Part shown: in pieces, positions 8,789 through 64,000 of the stretch
Layout of the letters: the number at the start of each line of letters is the position of its first letter
Numbering within the stretch: the stretch's first letter is position 1
Assembly (NCBI GenBank): GCA_951813565.1
Contig: OX638351.1
Location: 5,056,001 to 5,120,000 of the forward strand
Direction: 5' to 3'
From: an uncultured Poribacteria bacterium
GTDB lineage: Bacteria; Poribacteria; WGA-4E; WGA-3G
Length of the DNA: 64,000 nt
Translations under genes and position numbers: made by a program
Notes under the pieces: model-generated
What the model saw: the letters and a program-made list of their open reading frames with translations, nothing else
Databases searched by the model: none
Told to the model about the DNA's origin: nothing

Positions 8789-9048
8789 GAGGGATGTGCA
8801 TAAATATTGGCGCATCAACACAGACAGGGACAGACGCCAGGTGCCGCTTGATTTATAGAAATGCGTTTGTAGTCGCGCAATTCATTGCCAAATCAACGCA
8901 GCATGCGCCAAATCAACGGTATGAATGCCTTATGGCATTCCCCGTGTGGCATGCTGCGCCTCTTTGAACTTGTGGACGGAGACCCACGGCGTGTGCGGAC
9001 TACCTTTAAGCGCATATTTAACATCGGAATTATTTATGCACACCCCTC
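8789..9048. mobile_element. MITE family A (260 bp)
   Basis: TIR GAGGG(A/G)TGTGCATAAAT; 8-bp TSD ATTTATAT at 8781-8788 and 9049-9056; second copy at 53078-53423. Confidence 0.85.
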
Positions 9049-9122
9049 ATTTATATTGACTAACAGATATCCTGAAGGAAATTGACATACTCCCAAGCTA
9101 AAGCATGGGGATTCTTCTATCA

Positions 9123-10280
9123 TCAGAGACTGCCTGCCGAGGCAGGTGTTACGTCTCCTCCTGAAAAGGTTGACGCCCCAACCTTATGAATATTTATAGC
9201 GGCGTTTATATCGCGGTCATGAGAGATTTTGCAGTGATGACAATACCAATCGCGCACACTCAAATTAAAGAACATCTGGATTTGTCCGCAGGCGTGGCAA
9301 ACTTTGCTTGTGGGTGTCCATCTGTCAATCTGCTTGACATGCTTGCATCGTTTTTGTGCTTGCCATTTGATTTTCAGCATGAAATCTCCAAAGGCGTAGT
9401 CAGAGACTTTTCGTCCCCAGAGGCGTTTCATGCCATCAAGGTTCAAGTCTTCAAAGTAGCAGACATCAAACTTTCGGACAAGTTCAAGTGCGAGTTTCCA
9501 GTGATGGTCTTCACGTTGCCGATTGATTTTCCTGTGTACCCGTGCAAGGTCTTTCCTCACACGCTCGCGATTGTTGCTGCCTTTTTGCTTCCGAGACAAC
9601 GCACGACTCGCACGTTTTATCAGTTTAGCAGCAGATTTATAGAATTCAGGAGATTGATATTTTGTGCCATCGGAACAGGTGAGGAAGTGCTTGAGTCCAA
9701 AGTCAAACCCTGCTGTCCTACCAGTCTTAGGTGCAGGCTCAAGTCCCTCAGTGTCTGTTGTGATAGTGATATACCAATCCCCTACAAAGTCTTTCTTAAC
9801 GGTAACCTGTTTGATGTTGCCTTCAATAGGTCGGCTATACCAGAATCGGTACCAGCGTCTATTGATACGGATTTTCGCAACGGGGCAGCCATCTATTTTG
9901 TCAATAGTTTCTATTTTCACTTGGCTACCATCAAAAGTCATAGATTTATATTTATACCGACTTCTAAATTTAGGTGGACGCTTGGCTCTACCTTCAAAGA
10001 AGTTTTGCCAACCTCTGTCAACACGTTGGATACATTCTTGCAAACACCAAGAATACGGAACAGTCCAGTGTTGATATTTAGCAAGTCGTTTCAGTTTCGT
10101 CAGATGTTTAATCATTCTGTAGCAGCTTGGACGCTTATAGTCTTCGCAATGTCCGTAGATGCGATAGTGACGCTGCCACAACGCAACAAAATGGTTATGG
10201 ACATGTGCAATGATATGCAAATCTTTTTGCATAAGACGGTTTCTTTTGTGTTCTTGTCCCTTGTATTTGTAGGTTCGCAT
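9123..10280 (-). CDS. tnpB: RNA-guided endonuclease TnpB
   Basis: MRTYKYK N-terminus; RuvC motifs GFDFGLKHF, FEDLNL, HDRDINAAINI; CHAC/CHHC zinc finger. Confidence 0.92.
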   Translation of the reverse strand: MRTYKYKGQEHKRNRLMQKDLHIIAHVHNHFVALWQRHYRIYGHCEDYKRPSCYRMIKHLTKLKRLAKYQHWTVPYSWCLQECIQRVDRGWQNFFEGRAKRPPKFRSRYKYKSMTFDGSQVKIETIDKIDGCPVAKIRINRRWYRFWYSRPIEGNIKQVTVKKDFVGDWYITITTDTEGLEPAPKTGRTAGFDFGLKHFLTCSDGTKYQSPEFYKSAAKLIKRASRALSRKQKGSNNRERVRKDLARVHRKINRQREDHHWKLALELVRKFDVCYFEDLNLDGMKRLWGRKVSDYAFGDFMLKIKWQAQKRCKHVKQIDRWTPTSKVCHACGQIQMFFNLSVRDWYCHHCKISHDRDINAAINIHKVGASTFSGGDVTPASAGSL

Positions 10281-10294
10281 TACCTATATCCTTC

Positions 10295-10365
10295 GCATTA
10301 CAATGCCAACTTCAAATGGTGCGGTGGCACTCTCAAGCGAGAGGTGAAGTCCACCGCTGTAATGC
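10295..10365 (-). ncRNA. Structured RNA motif, copy 1 (5' leader of tnpB)
   Basis: Three-stem fold with CUC-GCUU-GAG hairpin; begins 7 nt after TTGATT-N17-TATACT; structural homolog at 32727-32801. Confidence 0.55.
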
Positions 10366-10475
10366 TGAATATAGTATACCAAAAACGCAAGGAAAAATCA
10401 ACAAAAAAATGGAGACGTTAGCGGTGTCTACATCCCCGTGCTAAAGCAACGGGGTTTTGACACCGAAGATTGATA

Positions 10476-28960: not shown

Positions 28961-29096
28961 ACTTGGTAGATTGTGGCTGTAGGGCGTTTCTATCGCCTTA
29001 CAGGAAACTAAATAGTCCAAGAATGAAACAGATTGAAAATAATCAGCTATCTACAAGAAAACTTGACATTTTGCATAATTGACCTGGAGGGTTGGT

Positions 29097-29900
29097 ATGA
29101 ACAATCAGAAATTAGTTATCCCACAATCAGAAGCCAAGAAACTACTATCACTCCCCACACGCGAAGCAGAACAACTTTTCCAAAGTTACGAAAAAGACCA
29201 ACAACTTGAGATTATCCGTGCAACCCGCAACCCGAAACAGCGAGAAGAATTATATTATCTTGTGCCAGACTGCACAGAGTTAATTCAGGATAGTCCTACC
29301 GAAGATGTCCTACAAGTGCTTGACACACTTCTTGGAACCGGTCTCGCATGCGGTCTATTACCGTGTTTATCTAACGAACAATTTGAAGAGATCATCGACA
29401 TTGCGATTTGGCGCGATGGAAATTTAGATGAAAAATCGCTAAGTTTGTGGCTATTTGAGTTATCTGAATGTGAGAGAGACGACCTTAGCCGCTTCCTCGG
29501 GCAAATAGACCTGCGTATTCTTGCTGGACTCCTCAAAGATCGTGTCAAGTTGAAAGGTGCACTCGGTGCGATGCTGATAGATGAAGGTGTCATTGATCCG
29601 AGTTCCCCATCAATCGAATGTAAAGATGACCAAGCCAGAGCGATTCTCAATGCAATATGGGAAGCAGATGGAGACCTTTTCAATCGACTTATGCGAGACA
29701 TTTTCGCTATTGACAAGGAAACAAGTGTAGATGAAGGATTAGTTTCCGCATTAGAAAGGGCAAGTGCAGAAAGGGCAGAGCGAGTCAAAGCACGTGATAG
29801 TGAAGCAGGAATCAGTGTCACCGAATCTGACCTGAAGCAGCATGTTGATTTGGATTCTCTCGAACTTGCCGAGGATAAAGGGGAAAATGCGGACGAGTAA
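29097..29900 (+). CDS. DUF6178-like protein, N-terminal half
   Basis: Recalled similarity of S.EQF..IIDIAIWRDG.LD...L..WL to the DUF6178 N-terminus; GGAGG RBS. Confidence 0.55.
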   Translation: MNNQKLVIPQSEAKKLLSLPTREAEQLFQSYEKDQQLEIIRATRNPKQREELYYLVPDCTELIQDSPTEDVLQVLDTLLGTGLACGLLPCLSNEQFEEIIDIAIWRDGNLDEKSLSLWLFELSECERDDLSRFLGQIDLRILAGLLKDRVKLKGALGAMLIDEGVIDPSSPSIECKDDQARAILNAIWEADGDLFNRLMRDIFAIDKETSVDEGLVSALERASAERAERVKARDSEAGISVTESDLKQHVDLDSLELAEDKGENADE

Positions 29901-30837
29901 ATTTTCCCTCGTAGCAGATGCAGTCATTGATGGGCAGTCTTTCTTAGCACGAACGATGCTGCACGGCGATGCCCTCGGTAGAATCGAAGCCGAAAAATCG
30001 GAGACGCTTTCCGAGGACATCGCCGCGCTTGCGCATAAACTAATTACAATGAAGGTCGCTGACCTTTCCAATGAGTCTGAACTTCGCGAACAGATTCAAG
30101 TCGCCTTCGCATTGACGAGTTTGGGTTTAGAATACGGAAGCAAGGGAAACTTGGACAAGGCAGTTAACGTGCTACTTGCAAACCCCATCGTCAAGTTTTT
30201 CCAAATCGGTAATACGCTTACAGACAAATTACTGAAAAAAGCCAGCCACATTCTTGAACACGCGATAATTGAACCAGATGAGTCCCTTTCCCACCTTGAC
30301 ATTGATAGCATTCGTATCTATAACCATGCCGAAGCAAAATTTTTAGACGCCTTAGCCGCATATAATTCTACTATCACCACAACACAAGTAACAATAAAGA
30401 ACGACCATCCACCCCGTGCCTTTACGAATCTTTCTGATATGGAGATTATCCGTCAACAGTTGGATTATATTGAGGCACGATGGGGTTATGTCCAAACATT
30501 GCCGCTTGAAGATATTTTTACGATTGACCCACCCCTTAGCATCGCCGTAGACCCAATTCAAACATTAACACTCAGTTTGATGGCAAATTTGACGGTGTAT
30601 TTTCAACCTGATTTACAGTTGGAAGCGGACACGCTTTCCGATTTTAGAGACATCATCTATGATGAAAGCAGTGGCGAGATTAGAGAGGCGCCACGCCAAC
30701 GTTTGTTAGATTGGATTGAAAACTATCTTGAACAAGATAACCAACCTGACGATGTAAAAAAGTATACTGTGGCATATTGGGATGCCTGCCTGCAGGAAAT
30801 GATTGATCCAGATTCCAATTTGGGGTTGTTGTTATAA
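29887..30837 (+). CDS. DUF6178-like protein, C-terminal half
   Basis: SLGLEYGSKG.LDKA..VL.......FFQIG.TL motif; overlaps the previous gene by 14 nt. Confidence 0.55.
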   Translation: MRTSKFSLVADAVIDGQSFLARTMLHGDALGRIEAEKSETLSEDIAALAHKLITMKVADLSNESELREQIQVAFALTSLGLEYGSKGNLDKAVNVLLANPIVKFFQIGNTLTDKLLKKASHILEHAIIEPDESLSHLDIDSIRIYNHAEAKFLDALAAYNSTITTTQVTIKNDHPPRAFTNLSDMEIIRQQLDYIEARWGYVQTLPLEDIFTIDPPLSIAVDPIQTLTLSLMANLTVYFQPDLQLEADTLSDFRDIIYDESSGEIREAPRQRLLDWIENYLEQDNQPDDVKKYTVAYWDACLQEMIDPDSNLGLLL

Positions 30838-31058
30838 TACAATTCCCTTGGTGTCATCTGAACCAGGATTTTCAAGATTGTGAAGTTCTCCTGATTGAAA
30901 TTTATCTCTTGTGGGAGGGCTTTTTAAGCCCGATATATGATTGCATAACGGTTGGAAACTCGCGGATCCCTTAGGCACATGCAACGTTGATTCAGTTAGG
31001 GTTATTTAGTTTCGCAATATATAATTTATGAAATAAATTATATATTGCGATAAGTTTT

Positions 31059-31567
31059 ATGCGCTACATTGAGATCGGGGCGTTGATGGTAAACTCACGA
31101 TGTCGGTGATACCGATGAGTGTTATGCCTTTTGATTTCGTTTTGATGGCTAAAAACAGGATCCCACTGATGACACCGAGCCGGAGTAAGAAAATCAGTAT
31201 CTGCTGTATCAGTTCCATGTACCCTACATTCCGCACTTCGAATTTCCGATTTTCGATATTTATTTCTCAAACCTGCGTGGCACCTACATCGAGCAAGCAA
31301 TTTCAGGTGAACCAGAAAAAAAGAAAAGTGACAAGTGGAATCTTAATTCACGGCACCAAATCTCCTATTATCCGGCACGGATCCTTTCGTGACACGGGTT
31401 TGTCCTATAAATATTAAATTCTGATTAAACAACTGCGGAATGTGGGTGGTATCTACCATATTGATGTATTAGATGATATTAATTCCTTGAAAGGTCTGAT
31501 AAAAGAATTTAACAGTCTTATTATTGAACCGATTCGCCAAAAGCGTAAACAAAAGAGCATCACATAA
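31059..31567 (+). pseudogene. Possible degraded gene remnant
   Basis: Protein-like stretches (YLLYQFHVPYIPHFEFPIFDIYFSNLRGTYIEQ) broken by several stops and frameshifts. Confidence 0.3.
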
Positions 31568-31677
31568 TAATTATATTCCGAAAGTCATTTGAAACGGAAA
31601 AAGAGGCGAAACAGCGTGCTATATCCGAGATGGGAATATACACCAACGTTTTTATGTTGTCCTCCGACGCAAGCGCA

Positions 31678-31961
31678 CTAACGACTTGACCTCTTTAGCA
31701 TCTTTTCATATTCACTGTGGGGACCGATCCAATACCAAATAATCTGACCATCATCTTCATATCCTAAGCTCTATAATCGTTGGTAATTCGTATTGACCAG
31801 AGACCAGCAGAGACTTTTTTGAAGCGAAGTGATGGATATAAGGGATTTTCTTGTAGGATTTGGAATTGTCTGGCAGCACGTCTTTGTATATTTTGCGGAA
31901 GTTTTTGCACCAATCCTATAAAATTCGGATTTCTGATGTGCTCAAATTGTAAGTTATTCAT
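31678..31961 (-). pseudogene. RelE/ParE-like toxin with a 1-nt deletion frameshift
   Basis: LQENPLYPSLRFKKV..LWSIRITNDYRA then TAG; restoring one T gives LGYEDDGQIIWYWIGPHSEYEKML. Confidence 0.8.
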
Positions 31962-31968
31962 GCCTGTC

Positions 31969-32286
31969 TTACACGATCTTAGAACACCTGCCTGCTTTGT
32001 AATCTTCAATAGCCTTTTCAATAAGGTGATCAAGCCTACCTGCTTCCATATCCTCTTTGATCTGCTGATCCCATGCTTCTTCTTTCGCAATTAGGGTTTT
32101 CTCAAGCATATCTGGCAATTTTTCTTGCACAGCTTCGGCAGTTTCCGCAGTGTATTCTATTTCGGGAAGTTCAGCAATAGATCCTTCCCAACAATTCCCA
32201 TTTTTTTGGATATATGCGGTATAGGTCTCATCGAACAGTTTATTATAAATATAATAAGTTATCATCCCTTGCCCTGTAATGATCAT
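31969..32286 (-). CDS. Putative antitoxin (HicB-like N-terminus)
   Basis: YTAYIQK.G.CWEGSIAELPEI...AETAE; C-terminal WDQQIKEDMEAGRLDHL; directly upstream of the toxin. Confidence 0.7.
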   Translation of the reverse strand: MIITGQGMITYYIYNKLFDETYTAYIQKNGNCWEGSIAELPEIEYTAETAEAVQEKLPDMLEKTLIAKEEAWDQQIKEDMEAGRLDHLIEKAIEDYKAGRCSKIV

Positions 32287-32309
32287 TTTTAACATCTCCT
32301 TATTAGATA

Positions 32310-32677
32310 CTATACTTTGGACAATTTTAGCTGTTTTCGTGAGGTTGGGTTAGAGAAAAACATATAGTTTTCATATTGGACACCTGTCGCCCCGCTGGGG
32401 CTGAAGCGGGTTGTTTACCGCGTTTCTATACACCTGTCGCCCCGCTGGGGCTGCCCAAAAGGTATTTTTGGACGAGTTCTTTCAGCCAGCAAAATCGCAG
32501 AAAATATAAATAATATAAGATGACACCTTAGCCCCAGCGGGGCGACAGGTATATAGAAGAAGGTAATTGCCGCTGTCTAAAGCCCCAGCGGGGCGACAGG
32601 TGTCCAATATTTTGCTTTGGACACCTAACAGTTTCTCAGCAAGTCCTCGAACAATATGTAAATTGTCCAAACTATAG
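32310..32677. mobile_element. MITE family B (368 bp) carrying four REP-like palindromes
   Basis: TIR CTATA(C/G)TTTGGACAATTT; 9-bp TSD TATTAGATA; inverted copy at 51498-51865. Confidence 0.92.
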
Positions 32678-32726
32678 TATTAGATATTATGATGCGTTTT
32701 TTATAGAATCACACTGTTCAATTTTC

Positions 32727-32801
32727 GCACTGTTCCCGTTTCGACTCGGTAAGGTAGAGACCGCCTCAAGCGAGGCAGGTCGAATTCTCTACCAACAGTG
32801 C
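32727..32801 (-). ncRNA. Structured RNA motif, copy 2 (5' leader of the toxin-antitoxin operon)
   Basis: GCACUGUU/AACAGUGC closing stem and CCUC-GCUU-GAGG hairpin; begins 7 nt after TTGCAA-N17-TATCCT. Confidence 0.55.
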
Positions 32802-33054
32802 TAAGTATAGGATACGGGAAAAAGGCAGGATTTGCAAGTAAAATCTCTTAATGTCGTCTTTGATACGAAAAACGCCATTAAAATATAACAATAAAAATAC
32901 TATGCAATAAATAATTTATGTCATAAACTATTTATTGCGTTTAGTTTTAAGAATTCTTAGTTTATGTATATTACTTAGAGTTATAGTGTAGGTAGGTAAG
33001 GTTTACGCGAACCCATAGGCATTAATTTAAGGATTATCTGAGAATGAGATATGC

Positions 33055-40189: not shown

Positions 40190-43100
40190 CTAATCAACTG
40201 ATGCATCGCCAATTTTCAAATCTTCAAAAGGTTTTCCATCAGCATCAGTAATTCGTAGATAGAATCCCCAGCTTAGTTCCTTATTGCAGACCTTGACAAG
40301 TATGGTGTTTTTACCAGCCTTGAGCGTTACTGGAATAACGTTATCATCAATGACTGCCCATCCACCATTTGGTTTTGCAAACACTTCTTTACCATTCAAC
40401 CAAATTTTACCTTCATCATCACTACCAAATCGGAATTGCACCTCACGTTCATCAGGGGATATCACGTTTGCCCATGCGTAGGAAACACGCCAATTAATGT
40501 CCTTCCCTAAATCAACGAAACCATCGAAAGCGTCATCCGTAAATGTTTGCCAACTTATCTGCCCATCTGCGCCTTCATATTTGGCAGTTGGGTCAAATTG
40601 CGTAGTATCTTCGGAGATGTATTTGGTATTATATCCGATTTCTGCAGTATTGTCAAATGGTCCGAGAACAAGCCACGCATTTTCATGAACTATGCCGGTT
40701 TGCAGCATCTGTTCCATTGCCTTATCGGGCATGTTGTTTTTACTATAGTACTCAGCCAAGCCGAGGTTGACATTTAGGTGGAATGATGGTTTAGGCGGGG
40801 GCGCGTTTAGTAACTCTTCCGCCGTTTTAAATTTCAGATCGGTAAAAGGAGTCCCATCTTCGTCAGTAAGCCGCAAATAAAAACCCCAAGATTGCGTTGA
40901 ATTGCAAATCTTCATAAGGATAGTATTTTCTCCTTGCTTCAAGGTGACAGGAATCGTATAACGGTCAAATGATATTCCGCTGGTTCTATCATGCTTAAAC
41001 ACATGTTGACCGTTTAGCCAAATTGTTCCCTGGTCATCGCTATCAAATCGGAATGTAATGTCGCGTTTATCTGGAGAGATAACAATTGCCCATACATAGG
41101 CTGCCTGCCCATCCTTATCGCTGCCGAAATTGTAATGTCCATCCAATAATACATATTCAGATTCTTTCCAACTGATGAGTCCATCTTTTCCATAGTATTT
41201 TGCTGTTGTGTCAATTTGTGAAGTTTCTTCAGGGATATACGCATTTCTATGGCCTATTGAATCTACATTTTTAAACGGTCCAAGGGTTATCCAACGAGTT
41301 TCAGGCACAAAACCTGTTTTTGAAAAAAGGTAGCTTTCCACGTTCTCAGGCGTATCATTTTCACTGTAGAATTGCGCTAACGTACGGTAAGCGTGTGCAC
41401 GATTACTTGAACTTTCTGGTGGAATAGTTTTTATCAACCCATCCAGCATTTGGGCATAACGTTCTTTATCGTTTGCTTTCTTTCTTAAATCAGCGACTTT
41501 CTTCCAAAACTGCTCCGAGGAATAATCGGAAGTAATGATACTTAAAGCGTATTTGTAATTTCTTAACGCATCATCATAGCGTTCATTTGCAATACACGCA
41601 TGCCCAAGTGTCATGGGATAGTAATAACTCGTTCCCGTATAGCCTTGTAATGCACGTTTCGCGAATTTTAGCGCAATGTCCGGATAGAGACCTTTTTCAA
41701 GGAGTTCTTCAGCAAACCTACGTTGGTAATATGCACTCTGTTTGTTGACCGCTTTCTCTCGAATCTTCAACCACTTCGCGTATGCAAGTTCAGCTTTTTC
41801 CGATTCATCTGTTTTCTTGTAGAGATCGCCTAATAGTTCGTGCAGTTCAGCACTTCCTTCTCCTTTCGGAATCAGCTCTTCAAGGATAGCGATGCGTTTG
41901 TTTTCTTGCCCTTCATCAGTGTAAAGGTCGGCGATAGCGCGAATTGCTGAATTGTGGTTGCCTTGTGTCAGCGGTGCGTCTAATGCGCGACGATATACTG
42001 CTTGAGCTTCTGATGTCAGGTTCTGTTTTACAAATAATTTTGCTAACAGATCGTAGGACTGGTATGATTTTGGTTGAAGTTCAATCGCTTTTTCGTAAGA
42101 GGATGTCGCCTTTATCAAGTGCTCAGTCTTCAAACTTCCAAAAATTGGACGGGTGTAAGATTCAAGTTTAGCATTTCCAATGAGTTTCCCATCATTTTTA
42201 TGAGGTGAACTATCGGAAACGCGACCATCCGTTTCTGCGTCAAATTTCCAATAGCCGACTAATCCTGTTTCATCTCCATTCAACTGCTTGTTCATATCGG
42301 AACGAATTTGTTTTTCAGTACGCGCGATGTTCCAAATTCGCACTTCATCAATGAGCCCAGCAAAAGATGCGTGCTCAGATATTTCTTCTTCATGTGAACA
42401 ACCGATACGAAATGGCAGTGTGGTTTTACGTAGACTGTTCGCCTGTTTAAAGTCATTTCTTCCAACTTCAAAACCGTTGAGATATAACTTCATGATGTCA
42501 TTTTTAGCATCAATGGTTCCCGCAACATGGTACCATTTATTTTTTTCAATCGTATTTGGCGGAGACCAAATAAATTTTTGTGGATGTCCGCCCGGGGATG
42601 CATTAAAGAGAATTTTACCTTCATCAAACAACCAAAGTGTGAATTGACGATGCGAAATGTCCGGAATCCGTTTGTCACCTTTGAATAACACAGTCGTATA
42701 GGTGTTTAGAAAATCTGTGGGTTTGATCCATGCTGATACTGTCACTTGTTCCGTAATCTCATTCAAAGACTCGCTGCCGTTGATTTCGACGTAACTTCCG
42801 TTGCCATCTAAGCTAAGTGCTGTGTCTCCAACACTCTCAAAGACTGGACGGGTATAAGGTGAAAGCGTGGCATTTCCTATGAGTTTGCCATCATTTTTGT
42901 TAGGTGAACTATCAGAAACGCGTCCCTCCGTTTCTGTGTCAAATTTCCAATAGCCGACTAATCCCTGTTCATCCCCATTGAGTTGCTTGTTCATATCAGC
43001 GCGAATTTGTTGCTCAGTACGTGCAACGTTCCACACACATACTTCATCAATTTGCCCGACAAAAGCTGTATGTGCAGACACCTCTTCATGAGTCCATCCA

Positions 43101-46100
43101 ATACGAAGTGCGAGATTGCTTTGATATATTCTCTGTTCGCCCTTAAAATCTCTCTGATTAACCTGAATTCCATCAATAAAAAGTTTGATGATGTCGTTCT
43201 TTGTATCCACAACACCCGCAATGTGATGCCAAGTGTTGGGTTCAATAATACCTTTTGAAGAATAAATAGATGCGTCACTTTCGCCATCGGGCGATGCAGC
43301 AAATTGAATCGACCGATCATCTTTAAGATTTAGGAAAAAACTTCGTTTCTTGAAATTGGAATCCCACTCATCAGTTTTAGAAATAAAAGGTGAATATCCG
43401 TTTGGGAATTTTGTCGGTTTAATCCACGCTGATACTGTCACCTGATCCGTAATGTTGTTTAATGACTCGCTGTCACCGATTTCAACGAAACTCCCATTGC
43501 CGCCAAGCGTAAGCGCAGTGCCTTCAACCACTTCACCTGTCTTCCGTCTCTCAGACGCAGGCGGCAGATTTTGATAAAGGTCACCAAGTTTTTTGTGCCA
43601 CTGCGTTTTTTTGGGTTGCAGTGTGGAAAGTTTTACATATTGCCCAATCGCTTCTTTAGTTTTATTGGTGGCTTCATAACTTTCGGCAAGTTTCAAGATT
43701 AGCTTGGAATCGTTGGGGTTCTCCTCAACCTTCTTAAGCTGTTCCGGTATCCATTTTTCGTAAAGTTTTCCATCTTTAGCGATTTCACGGATTGCATTTT
43801 TTGCCTTATTTTGTGTGCTGTCAGATGTGGCTCTGCTTGCCATCTCCTGATATGCATCAATAGCTTCTTCGTAGCGCTTTGCCTCACGGTAGCTTTTCGC
43901 AAGCATTTCGCGCAAAGTATCTTGAATCGAACTACCGCTGTAACTGCTACTTGCATCAATCGCGGATTTAGTCAGTTCAATCGCTGGTTCGTACATTTTA
44001 TTCTCAATGCAGAAAGTTGCGACCGTGCCAAGAAACCACATATCAGTTCTTTTACTACTGGATGCAAGTGCCTTCTCAGCTCGTTTGAGCGTCTCTTTCA
44101 CCAATTCAGGTTGTTTGTTTTTTTCCAAAGCAGCCGCGGCATAATATAAATTGCGCAAATCATCAGATTTTGCTTTGCCAAGTGCTTTATACATTTCAGC
44201 AGCTTTTTGATAGTCCTTTGCATCCCAATATATTTTTGCCATCACTCTGAGTGCAACAGAATTTTCTTTATTTTCTTCAAGTTTACCCTCATAATGCGTC
44301 TTCAAATCATCAAGTTTAATTTGATCATTGAAAGCACTAATCAAAGTATCACGTGCGGTATCTACATCGTATCTCGCTGTAATACCTAACGAACTGTACG
44401 ACGAACTGTACCTGAGTGTTCTACTGTTTGTATTTGTATTCGCCTGTGTTTCATAGGTTTCTATTACTGAGTCCATTTCACCGAGTTCCACGTATACTTT
44501 GAGCAATTCAGCAGAAATTCTTTCTTTCTCATAAGAGCTGGTTGTCATGTCGCGTGCTCTCTTATAAGCATCAACAGATTTTTCTAATTCGCCGGCATTC
44601 AGAAAGTGTTCGGCACGGACTTTTTGCATCTCAAAAGTAAGTGTGCCTTCATCTTCAGCCTTTTGTAGCATCTCTTCTAAATTTCCCTGATAACGATAAA
44701 GGTTAATCAATTTCCGTTCGATATTTCGCCGATCATAATCTGATACCGTGTACTGAATGGCATCCCTGAATGCCTTTTCTGTCGCAGCTACGTCGTCATT
44801 AGAGAAGTAAAGTGCTGCCATATCGAGATGAATTTGTCTATCTCCAGGCGCTAATTCAATTGCTTTTTGATATGTGGTAAGAGCCTCATCCGGTTTATTT
44901 TCGTCGGCATAGAGTTTTGCAAGTCGTACGTAATGGACACCAATTTCCGGTTCAGCTTCAATGTATTTCTGTGCAAGTTCAAGTGCATCGTTGGGTTTAT
45001 CAGCATCTTGATAACTTTTGACAAGTCCATCCTGATACTTTGTATTCTCTGGGTCAGCTTCAAGCAGTTCAGTCCACGTCTGGGCAGCTTTTTCGTGTTG
45101 ATCCATGCTTGTATAGAGCTTTGCCAGTTGCGCTCGGGATTTAAAGTCTTCGGGTACCGTTTCAACGATTCGTTCATAAATTTCTATGGCTTTATCTTCT
45201 TCGTCACGCTGCACGAATTCTTCTGCCATCGCGCGCTGCATACCGATACTCATCTCTTGCGTTTTTTCGGCAAGTTCTTCTGTGGCATCAAGATCGCCGC
45301 GTTGCTGTTTTATCCGCATGAACCTATCTTGTGCATACTCACGGTTATACGATGATGCAGAAAGATCGTTGATAATTTCGGTAAAGATAGCCTCGGCATC
45401 ATCCCACATTTGGTGTTGCATGTATTTTGAGCCGAGTTGTCTTTTTTCATACACGCTTCTTGAACTATCTTGCATAGTTTGGATCGTGCCCATTTTACGG
45501 AATGCATTTTGCGCTTTTTCCAATTCATCTATCTTGGCATAAGCCTCTCCCAGTTTCTTGTAACATTCTTCGAGTTCCCATGAATTTTGACTTTCAAGTT
45601 TCTCTGCGGCAGCTTCAAGGAGACGGAATTGAAGTTCGTTCCCTTCACATGCGTTAGCAAGATTATAAAGCCACTGGGTGCTAACAGACGTGAGTGCATT
45701 CTCAATCAGATGATTGACGTGCAAACTTGCGCCTTCAATATCATCCGCCTTAAGTTTCATGGATGCCACAAGATATAGGAGTTTAGCGTCTGAAGGACTT
45801 TCGGCAAGTTTCGCTTCATATTCTGCAATAAAACTTTCTAATTCATCACTTTTCTCATCTTCTGATTCATCGTTTTTCTTATAGAGATTAGCGAGTCTTA
45901 ATACATAAGATACTTGGATGTCAGATATATCGTCAGTTTTGGATTGTTCGCGCAAGTATTGGATTGCCTTCTCACGTCCACCTGCTTTTTCATGAAATTC
46001 CGCAAGTTTCAATACAAACTGCGTTTGGGAAAGTGAGGTCTTACCAAGTTTTTGCTTTTCGGTTAAGTACTGAATCGCTTTTTCAGGGTCACCAGCAGCA

Positions 46101-49100
46101 ACATAAGCTGAGGCTAATTCCCGGTGGATATAGTCCCAGCTCGGGTGAACTTGAAGAATTTTTTCGAATATATCAACAGCATCTTGCGGTCTATCTTCGG
46201 TCAGACAACGTTGCGCAACTTCTTGGGTGAAATCGTTGCCGGCGTATTGTCCAACAGGCAGAATTATCTCTTTCGTGAGAGCAATAAGTTCATCCATTTT
46301 TCCTGCTTCAACAAATGCGTCTATGGCATTGCGATAATTGTATCCGAGAGCAGTTGAGTTATTTTTTAGAAGTATGGAATATTCAGGGACAGCATCCACT
46401 GCTTTCCCATTTCGCTCCAACATCTGGATGTGTCGGAGGCGGGTTGCACTGTCCTTCGGTTGTAATTTCAACGCTGCTTTGAACGCCTCTGAGGCTTTGT
46501 CAATCTTATTAGTGCCCTCATAGAACATTGCGAGTCTGATTTGCGCTTGGAATGACTCAGGATTCTTTTCGACCTCAGCGATAAAGTGGTTTTCACGGTC
46601 CTGCATACTTTGTGAACGACCAACAATATTTGTAGCCTGTTGAAAATTCCATGCGTACATCGTCCGTCCATAGCGATCAGGTTGGTTAGCAAAACGTAAT
46701 GCACGCTCCGCGAGTAACGCTGCATCCTGCCCTCTGCCGAGTTGTCTAAGATGTTGACTTAAATTCATCAGAAAATTCGGGCTGCGCTGTGTCATTGCTA
46801 ATGCCATCGCTTTTTTCGCAGCAGCAATCGCGTATTGTGTGAAACCAGCATCTTGAAGACTTTGTGAGAAATCATAAAGCTCTTGCGCACCAGTTGGTGA
46901 ATTCAGAATTTTTGCGATCAAGTCACGTATAGTGACTGCATCGCCTGTATGAACGGCAAGCTGCAGTAAAAGATCATAATACTGGCGACGGTTTCTTGGT
47001 TCTCTCTCAGCAAGATCCTCAAGCATAACCAATGCCTCCCTAAATTCCCCAGTCTGAATAGAGACAAAAGCGGTGTTGAGTTTCAGTGTAAGGTCATCTG
47101 GAAATTCCTTTTGCAAGGTAGAGAGAACCTCTTGTGCCAGATCGCGTTTGCCATCCCACCAATAGCAATAACTGAGTGCCAAACTCGGATAGATACGGTC
47201 CCGCCCCTCTGCCGCGTCTAATTCTTTTTGGAATTTTTTATATAACACTTCCTGTTGATCCCGCATCCAAAACTCACGAAAAATTGATCGGAGATAATTC
47301 AAACGTTCCTGATTGAAGTATGCTGTTGGGGTGGGAAAAGTAGACTGAACTCGTCTATAACTTCCGTAATAATAGTTTGCCAGGGAAAGTGCAGCAACAC
47401 GTCTGGGATTCGATGCGTTAGGTTTTGTTCGTTCACAAAAAGTCCAAAAAAGCGCAACCGTTTTGTTGAGTTCACCTTGATCTATGTAAGTATCTGTGAG
47501 TCTTTCAAAAAGGCGCCTATACTGCCCATGCTGCTTTTGCGGCGGGATAGGGAGATTAATAAGGATTTTCTCTGCGATATCTATCTTTTTAGTCACATGG
47601 AAAGCATCAACTAACTCATAACCTGTGCTGAAGTCAGTGACTTTTATATCCTCAATTTCACTCAATAGTTTTTTGGCATCTTCTTTTTTATCGTCACGAT
47701 AAAGCTCTTTGGCGTATTCACCGATATATCGGAGTCTTGCTTCGGGAACCAACCCAGGCATATCAGCAAGTGATTCTTTTAACGTTTCGTAACTGAGGTC
47801 CTCTTGTATTAATCGTTGCAATCGTAGCGGTTGGTATGCCAAGTCGTTGGGTGAGATTTCAATCAACTTGTCAATAACATTTTTAGCCTTGTCGTTGTTC
47901 TGAATCAAGGTATAGAATTGTGCTAAGGTTTCAAGTGTCTTGATGTTTGTAGGATTTGTCTCGGCATCAGTTTCAAAATGTTTGACGAGTTCAGGCAGTT
48001 TTCCCTGCTGCTGCGCAATTGTTGTTAATTGCACGAGAGCGCCAGCTTGTGCCTCTTCAAAAATTTTCGGCATCCACGGCATACTGGCACCCGCAAAAGT
48101 CGGTTTACTCTGAATCCGTCCGATACTTCCACGAGAAATCTCGAATTTATTTATTTCAATTCCAGGAATGGAAGAAGAAGCGAAAATCGTAGGTCTTGCA
48201 TCCTTCTGTTTTGACATATTTTGAGGGGGTTCAGGCATGTCGAGAATCTTGTGAAAATACGTGGTCGCGCGTTCTGATTCATTCATTCCGACCAACATAA
48301 CGCCAAGCCGGTAAAGGGGGATGTGCGCGTCAGTGCCTGTAATTTTTTCAGCTGCCCGGTCAAGCACCAAAAATGCTTCATCTGACAGTCCATGGCGTAG
48401 CAATAAAGCAGCGAGTTTCACATCCGCTTCAAGCGTCTGATTTTTCGCGTGTAGCAGTTTCGTCCATGCTTGAATTGCTTCCTGTTCACGTCCTGCATCA
48501 AACAACAATTCACCGAATTTTTGTTGATGAAAGCTTTCGGGGTGTGCCTTGACGAGACGTTGTTGATATGTGAGCGCATCCTGATTATCACCAAGATCAA
48601 GGCTAATTTCTACAAGTTTTGATAATAAATCCGGATTTTTGCGATCCTTATCTAACGCCCTTGCCAATTGAAAGCGCGCGTTCGGTAGGTCGCCATCCAT
48701 TCGGTAAAGTTCTGAAAGTGCTAAAACCGGTGCTACATCAGACGTGCTGGATTTAGATAATTGCTTCAATTTTTCCTCAAACTCTCCACGTCTACCGAGG
48801 TCATAATATGCTTCGGAAAGAGGTCCAACAAAAGCAAGTTTTTCACTCACGGTCCTGCTCAAATCCCAACACCGCCAATACTGTGCGAGTGCTTGCTGAA
48901 GTTTGCCTGAAAGTTTATAAATAGCTGCTAATTCAGCGCGTGTATCAATCGCTTCTGGTCGTAAACGAATTGCCTGTTTTAGACTGTCTATAGCCGTATC
49001 GTAGTTTCTGGATTGTTTAGCGATTTGTGCAAGCAGTTGATGTCCTTCAGGATTGCGAGGACTGTTTGCAATCACCTGTTTTGCCGCGGTTGTTGCCGCG

Positions 49101-51118
49101 CCAAAATCCATCACGTTGAGGTAAGATTTGGCGATGTTAGCATGGTATTCGCGAGCATTCGCGCCGTCTACTTCTATCAAGTGCATGTAGATGGCATTTG
49201 CCTCATCACGTCTACCTTGGCGGGAATAGACTTGGGCGAGCCATCGGTTCACAACAACATCATTAGGTTTGAGTTGCTTCGCTTTCAAAAGAACTTCCAA
49301 TGCATAAGTTACATTCCCTAACTTCAGATACATTTTGGAGAGTTGCTTTTGGTGCGTAAATTTGCCCGTATCAGTTAACCCTGGCTTTTCAAGTTCGGTT
49401 TCCAAAGCTTCGATCTTGTCAACGAGTGTGCCTTGCCTACGATAAAGTTCAATTCTTTTATCATCCATCTTTTCGGCAAAAAACTGATTTGGTGCAAGTT
49501 TCATCGCCGCTGTGTATTCCGTGAGCGCTTCATCAAACTTTCTATTGTCCATCAAATGCTTTGCCAATGTTTCGCGATAACGGTATTCATCTGGCATCAA
49601 CTCAACGGCTTTTCGAATTGCAGCTATAGCCTCAGTTTTGAAATTCTTTGCGTTAAGCAACTGTGCTAATCGGTCATAATTCACCGCGGTAGCTTTATCA
49701 TTGGCAACCATCCGATTCCATGTCTCAAGTGCTTTCTCACGATTTCCTTGACGGAAGTAAAATTCTCCAAAATACTCAATATAATCGAGATTATTCGGTG
49801 CAAGCGAGATCGTTTTTTCATATTGTGCAATGGCATCGTCTATCCATTCGTGTCCAGCGTAAATCTCTGCCAAGATGAGGTGTGTACTGGCATTGTTCGG
49901 ATCACGATCAATCATCCGCTGATAAGTTGCCTTTGCTTTGTTCTCACTTTCTATTTGCAAATACAACTCACCGAGTTCTCTGTAGATACCGAAATTGTCA
50001 GGGTCTTGTTCACTGAGGACTTCGTATTCCGCTGCTGCTTCCACAAATTTCTCAGCATTGCGAAGGGCGGTGATAAGGTTTAAACGTAGGTTTGCATCTG
50101 TTGAGGCAAGTTCAAGTCCTTTACGGTATGCTTCAATACCTTCTTCAAGTTGTTGATTCTCTATATATGCTGCTGCAAGCAATCCGAGCAGTTCCGGTTC
50201 ATTAGGGCTGGTTTCGAGTTTTTCCTGATAGTATTCTATTAAACCTTTCCAATTACTATCAGCTGCGAAAATACCGATGATACGGTGTTGGAGGTCTTTA
50301 CGTAGCCAATTGCCTGGGGCGGTTAATGTCAGTGCAGCATCGTAACTTTGGATTGCATTTTGATAGTCGCCTTTTGACTCATGGATATTGCCAATTTCTC
50401 TATGACTTAAGCAGATTCTGTAAGGGTCATCCTTTTTCAGTTGAATAATTGCCTCGTGCTGTGCGATAGCTTCTTCGTATAGTTCCTGTTCACGGAAAAG
50501 GTCTGCAAGTTCAATACGGGCAAAAATATCTTGCGGATCAAGTTCTGATATTTTTTGCCATGCCTGAATTGCTTCATCAACCCTATCTCGGCGGAAATAG
50601 GCGTTTCCAAGTGCCTTGTATATTGCTGTTAATTCTTCGGGAGGGACATCTTGTGTTTGTTCAGACAGTGCTGCTGCCTTTGTCAACGCTTGGATTGCAT
50701 CTCCATGTTGACGCAGGGCTTCATGCATCTGTCCCAGGGCAAAATGGGAGTAATATTTGCTCGGTGCGAATTCGACAGCACGTTGATATGCTGCAACCGC
50801 CTCAGCGTCTTTGCCAAGTCGTTTGTAAATGTGTCCTAAAATAAGTTGGAGATTTGGATCGTTAGGTTTGGCTTGTGCTTCTGCCTGATAGTCTGCGACC
50901 ATGGCATCTAAACCTGCACCTTCAAGGTAAAACTGATAAAGACGGTCAAATGTACTCCCCTCTTTTGGCTTACGACTTAGCATCAGTTTATAGCGTTCAA
51001 TGATTTTCTCATTGCTCGCTTCATCTTGGGAATTAGCCATAAATGGGAGATATAAGGTAGAAAATATAAGACACAGCAAGCATGCGACAGTTAAAAAGTG
51101 TATGCGTCTAAACATCAA
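40190..51118 (-). CDS. Giant secreted TPR-repeat protein (3642 aa) with two LamG domains and two C-terminal beta-sandwich domains
   Basis: Signal peptide; dozens of TPR-like repeats; two copies of ALxLxGNGSxVEI...LVGYWKFD; two copies of W..LGPF...F.SDD.G.IWLNG...L..G.NTIL.K. Confidence 0.88.
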   Translation of the reverse strand: MMFRRIHFLTVACLLCLIFSTLYLPFMANSQDEASNEKIIERYKLMLSRKPKEGSTFDRLYQFYLEGAGLDAMVADYQAEAQAKPNDPNLQLILGHIYKRLGKDAEAVAAYQRAVEFAPSKYYSHFALGQMHEALRQHGDAIQALTKAAALSEQTQDVPPEELTAIYKALGNAYFRRDRVDEAIQAWQKISELDPQDIFARIELADLFREQELYEEAIAQHEAIIQLKKDDPYRICLSHREIGNIHESKGDYQNAIQSYDAALTLTAPGNWLRKDLQHRIIGIFAADSNWKGLIEYYQEKLETSPNEPELLGLLAAAYIENQQLEEGIEAYRKGLELASTDANLRLNLITALRNAEKFVEAAAEYEVLSEQDPDNFGIYRELGELYLQIESENKAKATYQRMIDRDPNNASTHLILAEIYAGHEWIDDAIAQYEKTISLAPNNLDYIEYFGEFYFRQGNREKALETWNRMVANDKATAVNYDRLAQLLNAKNFKTEAIAAIRKAVELMPDEYRYRETLAKHLMDNRKFDEALTEYTAAMKLAPNQFFAEKMDDKRIELYRRQGTLVDKIEALETELEKPGLTDTGKFTHQKQLSKMYLKLGNVTYALEVLLKAKQLKPNDVVVNRWLAQVYSRQGRRDEANAIYMHLIEVDGANAREYHANIAKSYLNVMDFGAATTAAKQVIANSPRNPEGHQLLAQIAKQSRNYDTAIDSLKQAIRLRPEAIDTRAELAAIYKLSGKLQQALAQYWRCWDLSRTVSEKLAFVGPLSEAYYDLGRRGEFEEKLKQLSKSSTSDVAPVLALSELYRMDGDLPNARFQLARALDKDRKNPDLLSKLVEISLDLGDNQDALTYQQRLVKAHPESFHQQKFGELLFDAGREQEAIQAWTKLLHAKNQTLEADVKLAALLLRHGLSDEAFLVLDRAAEKITGTDAHIPLYRLGVMLVGMNESERATTYFHKILDMPEPPQNMSKQKDARPTIFASSSIPGIEINKFEISRGSIGRIQSKPTFAGASMPWMPKIFEEAQAGALVQLTTIAQQQGKLPELVKHFETDAETNPTNIKTLETLAQFYTLIQNNDKAKNVIDKLIEISPNDLAYQPLRLQRLIQEDLSYETLKESLADMPGLVPEARLRYIGEYAKELYRDDKKEDAKKLLSEIEDIKVTDFSTGYELVDAFHVTKKIDIAEKILINLPIPPQKQHGQYRRLFERLTDTYIDQGELNKTVALFWTFCERTKPNASNPRRVAALSLANYYYGSYRRVQSTFPTPTAYFNQERLNYLRSIFREFWMRDQQEVLYKKFQKELDAAEGRDRIYPSLALSYCYWWDGKRDLAQEVLSTLQKEFPDDLTLKLNTAFVSIQTGEFREALVMLEDLAEREPRNRRQYYDLLLQLAVHTGDAVTIRDLIAKILNSPTGAQELYDFSQSLQDAGFTQYAIAAAKKAMALAMTQRSPNFLMNLSQHLRQLGRGQDAALLAERALRFANQPDRYGRTMYAWNFQQATNIVGRSQSMQDRENHFIAEVEKNPESFQAQIRLAMFYEGTNKIDKASEAFKAALKLQPKDSATRLRHIQMLERNGKAVDAVPEYSILLKNNSTALGYNYRNAIDAFVEAGKMDELIALTKEIILPVGQYAGNDFTQEVAQRCLTEDRPQDAVDIFEKILQVHPSWDYIHRELASAYVAAGDPEKAIQYLTEKQKLGKTSLSQTQFVLKLAEFHEKAGGREKAIQYLREQSKTDDISDIQVSYVLRLANLYKKNDESEDEKSDELESFIAEYEAKLAESPSDAKLLYLVASMKLKADDIEGASLHVNHLIENALTSVSTQWLYNLANACEGNELQFRLLEAAAEKLESQNSWELEECYKKLGEAYAKIDELEKAQNAFRKMGTIQTMQDSSRSVYEKRQLGSKYMQHQMWDDAEAIFTEIINDLSASSYNREYAQDRFMRIKQQRGDLDATEELAEKTQEMSIGMQRAMAEEFVQRDEEDKAIEIYERIVETVPEDFKSRAQLAKLYTSMDQHEKAAQTWTELLEADPENTKYQDGLVKSYQDADKPNDALELAQKYIEAEPEIGVHYVRLAKLYADENKPDEALTTYQKAIELAPGDRQIHLDMAALYFSNDDVAATEKAFRDAIQYTVSDYDRRNIERKLINLYRYQGNLEEMLQKAEDEGTLTFEMQKVRAEHFLNAGELEKSVDAYKRARDMTTSSYEKERISAELLKVYVELGEMDSVIETYETQANTNTNSRTLRYSSSYSSLGITARYDVDTARDTLISAFNDQIKLDDLKTHYEGKLEENKENSVALRVMAKIYWDAKDYQKAAEMYKALGKAKSDDLRNLYYAAAALEKNKQPELVKETLKRAEKALASSSKRTDMWFLGTVATFCIENKMYEPAIELTKSAIDASSSYSGSSIQDTLREMLAKSYREAKRYEEAIDAYQEMASRATSDSTQNKAKNAIREIAKDGKLYEKWIPEQLKKVEENPNDSKLILKLAESYEATNKTKEAIGQYVKLSTLQPKKTQWHKKLGDLYQNLPPASERRKTGEVVEGTALTLGGNGSFVEIGDSESLNNITDQVTVSAWIKPTKFPNGYSPFISKTDEWDSNFKKRSFFLNLKDDRSIQFAASPDGESDASIYSSKGIIEPNTWHHIAGVVDTKNDIIKLFIDGIQVNQRDFKGEQRIYQSNLALRIGWTHEEVSAHTAFVGQIDEVCVWNVARTEQQIRADMNKQLNGDEQGLVGYWKFDTETEGRVSDSSPNKNDGKLIGNATLSPYTRPVFESVGDTALSLDGNGSYVEINGSESLNEITEQVTVSAWIKPTDFLNTYTTVLFKGDKRIPDISHRQFTLWLFDEGKILFNASPGGHPQKFIWSPPNTIEKNKWYHVAGTIDAKNDIMKLYLNGFEVGRNDFKQANSLRKTTLPFRIGCSHEEEISEHASFAGLIDEVRIWNIARTEKQIRSDMNKQLNGDETGLVGYWKFDAETDGRVSDSSPHKNDGKLIGNAKLESYTRPIFGSLKTEHLIKATSSYEKAIELQPKSYQSYDLLAKLFVKQNLTSEAQAVYRRALDAPLTQGNHNSAIRAIADLYTDEGQENKRIAILEELIPKGEGSAELHELLGDLYKKTDESEKAELAYAKWLKIREKAVNKQSAYYQRRFAEELLEKGLYPDIALKFAKRALQGYTGTSYYYPMTLGHACIANERYDDALRNYKYALSIITSDYSSEQFWKKVADLRKKANDKERYAQMLDGLIKTIPPESSSNRAHAYRTLAQFYSENDTPENVESYLFSKTGFVPETRWITLGPFKNVDSIGHRNAYIPEETSQIDTTAKYYGKDGLISWKESEYVLLDGHYNFGSDKDGQAAYVWAIVISPDKRDITFRFDSDDQGTIWLNGQHVFKHDRTSGISFDRYTIPVTLKQGENTILMKICNSTQSWGFYLRLTDEDGTPFTDLKFKTAEELLNAPPPKPSFHLNVNLGLAEYYSKNNMPDKAMEQMLQTGIVHENAWLVLGPFDNTAEIGYNTKYISEDTTQFDPTAKYEGADGQISWQTFTDDAFDGFVDLGKDINWRVSYAWANVISPDEREVQFRFGSDDEGKIWLNGKEVFAKPNGGWAVIDDNVIPVTLKAGKNTILVKVCNKELSWGFYLRITDADGKPFEDLKIGDASVD

Positions 51119-63097: not shown

Positions 63098-64000
63098 GTA
63101 CCCACTACCTAAAGGTAGGGGCTTGTGCTTCCTTGCGACTGCGGTTTTCGCTTAGCGTCCACCGTCTTAGTGTCGCTCCACTTTAGGCAGCCAAGCCTGC
63201 CTGTTTGATATTGATAGCAGCGTTGGTGTCTCGGTCGTGGTGTGAACCACATTTGGGGCATGTCCACTGCCTATCAGAAAGAGAGAGTTCTTTGTTATGG
63301 TATCCACAATCACTACAAGGTTTTGTTGTTGCTATCCATTGAGAGATTTGGACAAGTTTTTTGCCGTGTTTGGCACACTTCTGTTCCAATATCTGAAGAA
63401 ACTGGTAGAAAGAATGGTCAGAAACTTTACGTCCCCAAAGCCGTTTCATACCGTCAAGGTTCAGGGTTTCCAAAATGAGTGTGTCAAACTCTACACAAAG
63501 TTTTGAGGCAAGTTTCCATTGCCAATCTTCTCTTTGTCGGGCAATTTTTCTGTGTTGCCTTGCCAAAGCACGGCACGCACGATAATAGTTGTTAGAACCT
63601 TTGACTTTACGACTGAGTGCTTTGTTGAGAGATCGCAACGTGTTGAGTGATTGTTTGAAAAACTGCGGGGATTCTATTGTGTCCCCTTCGTCGCTTGTGA
63701 GGAATGTTTTGTTTCCGTAATCAAATCCTGCGCTCTTACCCGTCTTGGGTTTGGGTTCGGAATCGTCAACATTCTCGCACGAAAAGCATATCCAATAGTC
63801 ACCGCACCTATCGCGTTTGATTGTGATCGTCTTGATGACACCTTTGATTTCACGGTGTTTGTGAAAGGAAAACCATGTGTCTATACAGTTGATTTTGATA
63901 CGGTTCCCTTCAAGTTTGTAGCCCGCTTGTGTGAAGGTCATGGCGTTGTATTTGTGGCGGGGTTTGATTTTCGGTCTACCCACTTTACGCGTTGTTTTAC
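63091..64000 (-). mobile_element. IS200/IS605-family element, truncated by the window end
   Basis: tnpB plus structured 3' region and right-end hairpin CCCCTACCTTTAGGTAGTGGG followed by ...TGAC. Confidence 0.8.
63183..64000 (-). CDS. tnpB: RNA-guided endonuclease TnpB (5'-truncated)
   Basis: GFDYGNKTF, ILETLNL, CSDC/CPKC, HDRDTNAAINI; frame open to the window edge. Confidence 0.9.
   Translation of the reverse strand, partial: KTTRKVGRPKIKPRHKYNAMTFTQAGYKLEGNRIKINCIDTWFSFHKHREIKGVIKTITIKRDRCGDYWICFSCENVDDSEPKPKTGKSAGFDYGNKTFLTSDEGDTIESPQFFKQSLNTLRSLNKALSRKVKGSNNYYRACRALARQHRKIARQREDWQWKLASKLCVEFDTLILETLNLDGMKRLWGRKVSDHSFYQFLQILEQKCAKHGKKLVQISQWIATTKPCSDCGYHNKELSLSDRQWTCPKCGSHHDRDTNAAINIKQAGLAA

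Follow-up and report, generated by a model that had tools for sequence, protein, structure and literature searches.

Structured leaders of mobile and harmful genes

The IS200 tnpA 5′ untranslated region (the tnpA/art200 system) is a structured leader that represses translation initiation, and it controls tnpA with an antisense RNA and Hfq (PMC4513863). In the maturation-gene 5′UTR of the Levivirus MS2, an upstream strand buries the ribosome site, and the order of folding, with the inhibitory pairing delayed by a metastable hairpin, allows brief translation (PMC4615214). The type I toxin mRNAs timP (PMC13000454) and tisB (PMC7708055) carry a 5′ pseudoknot and mutually exclusive pairings that gate translation of a harmful protein. 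In the rep leaders of I-complex plasmids, such as repZ of ColIb-P9, a pseudoknot acts as a translation switch, the recognition loops are variable, and an antisense RNA is needed (PMC10724649). The literature searched does not say how IS200/IS605 elements without tnpA keep an active RNA-guided nuclease in check when the guide RNA is carried on the nuclease mRNA itself, and the accessible portion of PMC10691335 makes no mention of a tnpB leader RNA.

The window analysed here is a 64,000-nucleotide stretch of Poribacteria DNA. An initial annotation quoted two stretches as copies of one RNA motif, and both are present on the minus strand, at 32801-32727 (the flagged copy) and at 10365-10295. Comparison of copies strongly supports this minus-strand motif as a real, uncatalogued RNA family. 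The RNA is probably an undescribed on/off switch of gene expression, judging from its sequence and that of its relatives. It resembles the translation-gating leaders of IS200 tnpA, timP and the I-complex rep genes, but it belongs to none of these classes. Unlike the IS200 tnpA leader, it precedes tnpB in elements that lack tnpA, contains a pseudoknotted junction and a duplicated helix partner, and has no antisense promoter that we could find near 75 copies. In contrast to MS2, its decoy is a near-copy of the target strand and closes the pseudoknotted junction, and its kinetics are something we infer. It has neither the antitoxin sRNA nor the small toxin ORF of timP and tisB, differs from them in topology, and is portable before many types of gene. 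Neither an antisense RNA of the I-complex kind nor a leader peptide of the kind that ColIb-P9-type rep leaders need is evident. The omegaRNAs of TnpB and the guide-RNA-only mini IS200/IS605 elements come from the same elements, and a gene-less family described below has a guide-scaffold-like right end; the omegaRNA lies at the 3′ end beside the right end, whereas the Poribacteria motif lies at the predicted +1 and occurs also outside IS200/IS605 elements.

A pseudoknotted three-way junction

The core folds of the two window copies are located as follows.

32727..32801, minus strand: flagged core fold, with P1 formed by 32801-32794 and 32734-32727; fold z -5.3, covariation on 34 copies
32779..32785, minus strand: 7-nt bulge, 5′ half of the pseudoknot; 6/6 pseudoknot pairs with two-sided change, 99% of cells paired
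32739..32746, minus strand: P3 loop, 3′ half of the pseudoknot, placed by covariation and sequence
10295..10365, minus strand: second core fold, A subtype, leader of tnpB; fold z -4.1

The motif is a three-way junction of about 75 nt in which the 7-nt bulge pairs with the P3 loop. From 32801 to 32727, P1 (8 bp) is followed by P2 (8 bp), the bulge, P2b (7 bp plus a tetraloop), P3 (3 bp plus an 8-nt loop) and the P1 3′ strand, and the bulge is complementary to the P3 loop over 6 nt. Both copies form the three stems that had been described, and 0 of 200 shuffles folded as well. The bulge-loop complementarity, originally put forward as a possible pseudoknot, is likewise present in both, and all 6 of its pairs covary over 34 copies. 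In the 34 aligned copies, 98.1% of 1122 cells are paired and 22 of the 33 pairs change on both sides, against 32-45% paired in slid controls. The shuffle controls, here as for the short form and the distal helix described below, are inflated by relatedness among copies. The sequence CUCGCUUGAG, which had been thought invariant, is common to the two window copies but varies in the family, where loops include GCAA, GCAU, UCUU and ACUU, among others. Across subtypes the pseudoknot measures 6-7 bp and joins a bulge to a loop or one loop to another.

No Rfam family matched the motif. At the gathering threshold the window has 0 matches, Rfam 15 at E<=10 gives nothing on either core beyond weak chance overlaps, and copies of the D, E, F, B and A subtypes have no match at E<=1. 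As to the Poribacteria-1 motif suggested earlier for comparison, the leader RNA has no Rfam match under any name, which bears on that motif only insofar as its model is part of the library; RF03041-RF03043 are other families. The flagged core scores 88 bits against covariance model R1, of whose seed it is a member. A description of the motif was not found in the literature searched, which left subscription journals mostly outside, and the 224 motifs listed with PMC5737381 may include a relative.

A short form lacks P2b, so that two hairpin loops kiss; 97.9% of its cells are paired, and 5/5 pseudoknot pairs show two-sided change. Purine riboswitches and the Alu domain of SRP RNA are also helix junctions with a kissing interaction. 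The short form has two kissing hairpin loops closed by P1, but the leader has no Rfam match to either and no ligand pocket conserved across subtypes. As a separate observation, L001:356-621 encodes a large SRP RNA in which, as read from the alignment, 7 nt of one 5′ hairpin loop can pair with the other, so that its topology resembles the short form.

The initial annotation proposed a cis-regulatory RNA, riboswitch or ribozyme. The first part is borne out by a conserved, covarying sense-strand RNA at the predicted +1; a metabolite riboswitch and a ribozyme are not, given variable junctions and no known catalytic core. Junctions hold 0-6 variable nt, and their lengths and sequences vary among subtypes. 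The compact, covarying, pseudoknotted fold is of ribozyme size, but a new small self-cleaving ribozyme is barely credible: there is no Rfam match, almost no unpaired nucleotide is invariant across subtypes, and because the motif starts at the predicted +1 there would be no upstream RNA to cut away. The catalytic cores of known self-cleaving ribozymes, including the hammerhead motifs, were not found among these junctions.

Sensing of a ligand or protein is decidedly unlikely, though easier to credit than self-cleavage. A metabolite, an ion, TnpA, TnpB or a host protein would stabilise the compact fold and so turn expression on or off. The combination of a three-way junction with kissing resembles the purine riboswitch architecture, P2 is far more conserved than the other stems (pairwise difference 0.06, against 0.23-0.41), and two details are seen repeatedly, an A ahead of the CC of P3 and a single A-U pair in the pseudoknot. 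Against sensing stand the differences in junction length and sequence among subtypes and the absence of a shared pathway among downstream genes. The pocket of invariant unpaired nucleotides that marks metabolite riboswitches was not seen in 23 mixed-subtype copies, which have 4 invariant columns in an alignment that is imperfect around P3.

Distribution in Poribacteria

We counted 19 copies in this genome, 13 of the long form and 6 of the short form, of which 5 match the short-form pattern and 1 is degenerate. Among the long-form copies, 5 precede family-A tnpB genes (including 10365-10295), 4 precede family-B tnpB genes, 2 precede other tnpB genes, 1 belongs to a gene-less mini-element, and 1 is the flagged copy. 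A covariance model built from 7 copies of the flagged subtype, used for the search of related genomes that had been recommended, found the motif in 89 of 151 Poribacteria genomes, all in two families, and gave no match in 25 genomes from seven other families of the phylum. A first, loose structure descriptor returned mostly noise and was replaced by a stricter one. At a score of at least 38, this structure-only descriptor gave 14 matches in 10.85 Mb of real sequence (12 true by inspection, 2 judged false) and 0 in 2.7 Mb of shuffled sequence. A fixed pattern yielded 19 structurally real matches in a set of 82 metagenome stretches and 3 in a set of 4 viral stretches, which look Poribacteria-like by their promoters and gene context; all three of the viral-contig matches stand before a GIY-YIG-type gene. 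Neither the long nor the short form was found at 80 viral tnpB loci. The leader RNA has so far been seen only in Poribacteria-like DNA, in searches that were tuned on Poribacteria sequences, and from which absence elsewhere does not follow.

Promoter and transcribed strand

Both window copies begin 7 nt after a promoter with the geometry that had been claimed.

32809..32837, minus strand: predicted sigma-70-type promoter of the flagged copy, with -35 TTGCAA (32837-32832), 17 bp, -10 TATCCT (32814-32809) and 7 nt before the motif
10373..10401, minus strand: promoter of the tnpB element, TTGATT-17-TATACT, at the same 7-nt distance from the motif and detected in the promoter scan

The promoter scan did not list the flagged promoter, in which only 8 of the 12 letters agree with the consensus. 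Among the copies surveyed, 64 of 78 have a predicted promoter with at least 9 of 12 consensus letters, and the gap to the first base is 7 nt in 57 of 78, where gaps of 6-8 nt between the -10 box and the motif were allowed. The tnpB leader is covered by contigs from two of four RNA runs (two of the four look like one data set); these extend upstream of the predicted +1, although contigs cannot show starts.

The strand is fixed by the P1 helices themselves, in which G-U combinations outnumber A-C combinations 65 to 5. No conserved antisense promoter was found: over-threshold scores occur near the leader in 37 of 75 copies and in control DNA in 35 of 75, at no fixed position. As a weak test for a cis-encoded antisense RNA gene of the ColIb-P9 or art200 kind, this shows no excess of antisense promoter-like sites in the 75 copies.

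A second partner for the 5′ strand

The main clue to mechanism was missed by the initial annotation: the P1 3′ strand is repeated just downstream, which gives the first 8 nt (X) a second, distal partner.

32711..32718, minus strand: distal repeat of the P1 3′ strand in the flagged copy; 8/8 pairs with the first 8 nt, one of them G-U
10277..10284, minus strand: distal repeat in the tnpB copy, holding the tnpB AUG; 7/8 pairs, with an SD-like AAGGA between the repeats

The repeat period ranges from 13 to 19 nt for the flagged subtype and from 6 to 8 nt for subtype E. Of 80 distinct copies, 77 pair X with the distal strand at 7 or more of 8 positions; a downstream control window does so in 5 of the 80 and an upstream one in 13. 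The search model that yielded these copies did not extend to the distal strand. Excluded from the 80 were cores with at least 95% identity, copies lying too close to the end of a locus, and those without a placeable P1 or P2. In the distal helix 95.4% of cells are paired and 7/7 pairs show two-sided change. An alternative pairing of the type found in riboswitch expression platforms is thus present, since the alternative P1 helix covaries. In the E subtype, at least 7 of 8 distal pairs form in 16 of 19 sense-strand copies and in 0 of 19 controls, the 19 rows having been chosen by eye from 45, with the other rows antisense or chance matches.

At 71 positions the two repeats carry different letters, and at 45 of these each of them pairs with X all the same. 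Because the repeats diverge while both pair, and G-U far exceeds A-C, selection appears to act on sense-strand pairing and not on identity. This bears on the idea of a DNA-level feature or mutational by-product, in which the stems would be single-stranded DNA hairpins of a transposon and the repeats would be kept alike by slippage and template switching. IS200/IS605 ends do form DNA hairpins (PMC13565253), single-stranded DNA motifs are hard to distinguish from RNA motifs (PMC5737381), and one element has lost its repeat by deletion (G000:2447444, below). The idea is nonetheless extremely unlikely in view of the G-U excess on the transcribed strand, of repeats that differ yet both pair, and of the fixed position relative to the promoter. 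An end-like hairpin, moreover, lies upstream of 30 of 39 tnpB copies but of only 1 of 41 non-tnpB copies.

The position of the distal strand relates it to translation. The AUG lies in the distal register in 38 of 39 tnpB copies, and an SD-like word stands between the repeats in 35 of 39 tnpB copies, against 9 of 39 copies before other genes. In the E subtype and in 13 short-form matches (from 18 loci), the repeat lies just before the AUG, over the usual SD position. Comparison of copies thus establishes the fold, the pseudoknot, two partners for X, and a distal partner that overlaps the predicted tnpB initiation site.

We tentatively favour a two-state, folding-timed translation switch, carried by a portable Poribacteria promoter-leader module. 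With X paired to the proximal strand, the compact fold would leave the ribosome site free (ON); if X slides to the distal strand, the AUG or SD would be buried (OFF). A new transcript may therefore allow a short burst of TnpB synthesis, followed by partial shut-off, which would limit the nuclease dose and leave the mRNA free as a guide-RNA precursor. Since transcription reaches the proximal strand before the distal one and little energy is predicted to separate the states, the likeliest trigger would be folding order and time, much as described for the MS2 maturation leader (PMC4615214), and not a metabolite.

The energies are model estimates. Constrained folding of short fragments favours the distal register in 29 of 39 copies, and ensemble folding with 30 nt of coding sequence favours it in 16 of 38. 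The two registers are thus predicted to be close in energy, with the estimates disagreeing on the winner; both are equilibrium estimates from models that ignore the pseudoknot, which may fix the compact state. By ensemble folding without the pseudoknot, the distal form of the flagged copy lies 2.8 kcal/mol above the proximal form, and that of the window tnpB copy is not within 3 kcal/mol of it. One family-A element, G000:2447444 (L008:945-1015), has lost the repeat by deletion, so that its AUG sits inside P1; with its intact tnpB, it is a candidate for a naturally locked-OFF leader.

The leader in tnpB elements

As had been stated, the copy at 10365-10295 leads tnpB.

9123..10280, minus strand: tnpB, 385 aa; the D/E/D RuvC columns are invariant among four leader-bearing TnpBs
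9082..10472, minus strand: tnpB-only IS200/IS605 (IS1341-type) element with left and right end hairpins; 5 genome copies, left boundary approximate

With tnpB as its sole gene and hairpins at its ends, the element that hosts 10295-10365 agrees with the definition of IS1341-type elements in PMC13565253. Of 27 tnpB loci that could be assessed by eye, 21 have the leader; it is absent at 3 loci where tnpA abuts tnpB and at 3 that have another leader. The same leader subtype is found with several TnpB clades, and within a single clade several subtypes are in use; this shuffling argues against recognition by the cognate TnpB, one of the sensing schemes considered above. The guide-RNA region of the family-A element can be drawn by eye with a similar helix-bulge-hairpin, a likeness that speaks for sensing.

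A further tnpB lies at 63183-63983 of the window, with a short-form leader just past the window end (G000:5120325-5120366). At 9000-9054, a short repeat with dozens of near-identical genome copies adjoins the right end of the tnpB element.

The leader offers a concrete and easily testable mechanism by which TnpB could be rationed. Natural controls exist in the repeat-less copy, the form without P2b, the gene-less elements and the compensated pseudoknot codes, which number in the dozens. Should the helix slide as we infer, the leader would also be a small part of ~95 nt that can be recoded and used to time or cap expression.

Other downstream genes and gene-less elements

The 80 copies were identified from the RNA and not from neighbouring genes; 41 of them stand before something other than tnpB, and some of these then run into decayed tnpB starts. 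We scanned 34 downstream non-tnpB proteins and identified 5 GIY-YIG nucleases, 2 DNA methylases, 1 MvaI/BcnI endonuclease, 1 AbiJ-TIR protein, 1 protease and 2 proteins with DUF domains by best hit; about 22-23 have no Pfam match, and several of these resemble small exported proteins. The earlier suggestion that the motif controls toxic genes therefore stands insofar as unrelated genes are led and several are risky (TnpB, GIY-YIG, MvaI/BcnI, the methylases, AbiJ-TIR), but a specific tie to toxic genes does not, given the share without a Pfam match. The transposon promoter-leader appears to have been reused before phage nucleases, restriction-modification genes and passenger cassettes.

One leader lineage precedes GIY-YIG nuclease genes (L104, L110, L122, L124, L125, L208 and L211-L213) and is divergent from a conserved small gene. 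At L112, L146, L214, L225 and L253, two leader subtypes lead one family of small, probably exported proteins without a Pfam match.

The promoter-leader module seems to have moved repeatedly between tnpB and other genes. On an unrooted tree of 76 columns, 13 label changes are needed, 4 of them forced by well-supported branches; the flagged copy presumably descends from a tnpB leader.

A ~450-bp gene-less IS200/IS605 family (D) combines a left end, the promoter, the leader, a structured middle and a guide-scaffold-like right end (L001:2000-2470, that is G000:963499-963979, and L269-L282). All 14 copies that bear the motif keep the pseudoknot, which takes 8 different sequences among them, and the repeat is lost in 2 of 14 and damaged in 2 of 14. 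The middle of the element contains ~150 nt of further covarying stems with no Rfam match.

About half of the copies of one subtype lead other genes and the gene-less family keeps the fold, so translation control cannot be the sole role. In 28 of 39 non-tnpB copies no AUG lies in register and the distal strand is still paired, with 124 Watson-Crick, 10 G-U, 0 A-C and 10 other combinations over 15 distinct X sequences. In the non-tnpB copies the next plausible start lies 17-237 nt beyond the distal strand, a distance at which occlusion of the ribosome site cannot explain why the distal strand is kept up.

These observations give weight to the strongest rival, a role in transcript fate that is independent of the ribosome site. 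It is somewhat unlikely as the main role, and it may hold alongside the translation switch. The leader would then cap or protect the 5′ end, direct processing or act on the elongating RNA polymerase; the helix swap would expose or hide a nuclease or Rho site, with coverage of the tnpB AUG secondary. Consistent with such a role, the fold starts at the predicted +1 with its 5′ end paired, persists in the gene-less family and before distant starts, and keeps its distal pairing where there is no start codon. It leaves unexplained, however, the placement of the AUG and SD in or between the repeats of nearly all tnpB copies. None of the 39 non-tnpB copies has a terminator-like site up to 150 nt from the repeat, and the loss or damage of the repeat in gene-less copies is what would be expected if the repeat serves translation.

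The 8 codes among 14 related gene-less elements also raise the possibility of a trans identity code. Cognate transcripts, or an antisense RNA, would kiss the leader, sense copy number and push P1 to OFF, and new codes would escape resident repression. The pseudoknot strand varies about as much as unpaired segments (pairwise difference 0.41, near their 0.37-0.46) yet is compensated, and I-complex plasmids offer a precedent in control by variable-loop kissing (PMC10724649). We nevertheless consider this code very unlikely, as a pairing-dependent helix that is neutral in sequence would give the same pattern and the antisense promoter scores match those of control DNA.

A broader and unlikely reading would join several of these elements in a new portable class of switch, in which a 5′ strand slides between two partner copies under pseudoknot control, setting transcript fate beyond translation wherever the ribosome site is too far away, perhaps with trans recognition and copy counting through the bulge-loop code. 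If this were true, such a leader would on its own control the dose of TnpB and of further risky genes. The two-state translation switch remains the reading that we prefer.

The flagged copy in a passenger cassette

The flagged core lies near one end of a cassette, which comprises the following features.

31013..32939, no strand: passenger cassette, 1927 bp; its ends begin like the terminal repeats of the genome's 1408-bp IS1595 element, with an 8-bp duplication (TTTAGTTT)
32681..32710, minus strand: rest of the leader, which resembles a decayed tnpB start, most clearly in orthologues L049 and L052
32307..32680, no strand: MITE, 374 bp, bounded by inverted ends and a 3-bp duplication (CTA); near-full copies in the genome number about a dozen
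31969..32295, minus strand: antitoxin-like gene, 108 aa; weak UPF0150 match only (E 0.014), relatives in 106/112 family genomes
31678..31961, minus strand: ParE-like toxin gene, frameshifted, with a 65-aa first piece; 88-94 aa in orthologues

Duplication of an 8-bp target is typical of IS1595. The cassette ends begin CGCAAT and are flanked on both sides by the 8-bp duplication, with divergence from the IS1595 ends after about 15 nt. No IS200/IS605 left end and no tnpB were found around 32727-32801, which sets this copy apart from IS1341-type elements. IS1595-like ends also lie upstream of 15 of 41 non-tnpB copies and of 0 of 39 tnpB copies; we had considered this repeat as a dif site and dropped the idea, since it is the IS1595 terminal repeat. 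Each cassette end forms a long palindrome in itself. There is a similar cassette, with a DNA methylase, at G000:1463415-1465613.

The initial annotation had the flagged copy leading a toxin-antitoxin operon. The two are on the same cassette but do not adjoin: 415 nt separate the distal repeat from the first ATG, and 374 of these are the MITE. Orthologue L044 represents the empty MITE site, with 38 nt from repeat to ATG. Among 11 close orthologues of the antitoxin-like gene, the motif was found by the model at 4, the promoter and first bases only at 3, and nothing at 4, and the descriptor found it at 0 of 13 more distant relatives. The tie between the leader and the toxin-antitoxin-like pair is thus loose. 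The flagged copy is best read as a borrowed, relocated promoter-leader that the gene pair does not require; it would drive the passenger cassette with the ribosome site out of reach. A reading of it as only a dead tnpB relic was also considered and dropped as insufficient, since 41 of the 80 copies stand before other DNA and still show compensating changes.

Several further features of the cassette and its surroundings were noted. Judged by their translations, the ParE-like genes of orthologues L045 and L054 are also frameshifted, through real decay or assembly error. The MITE at 32307-32680 contains internal REP-like repeats, and ~80-bp internally deleted forms of it also occur in the genome. 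Within the cassette, a ~224-bp repeat at 31223-31446 has 9 other genome copies, one of which adjoins the gene-less element G000:963972. Elsewhere in the window, a DUF6178 gene at 29079-30837 is split over two overlapping ORFs, possibly by a frameshift, and an ORF of 3642 aa spans 40190-51118.
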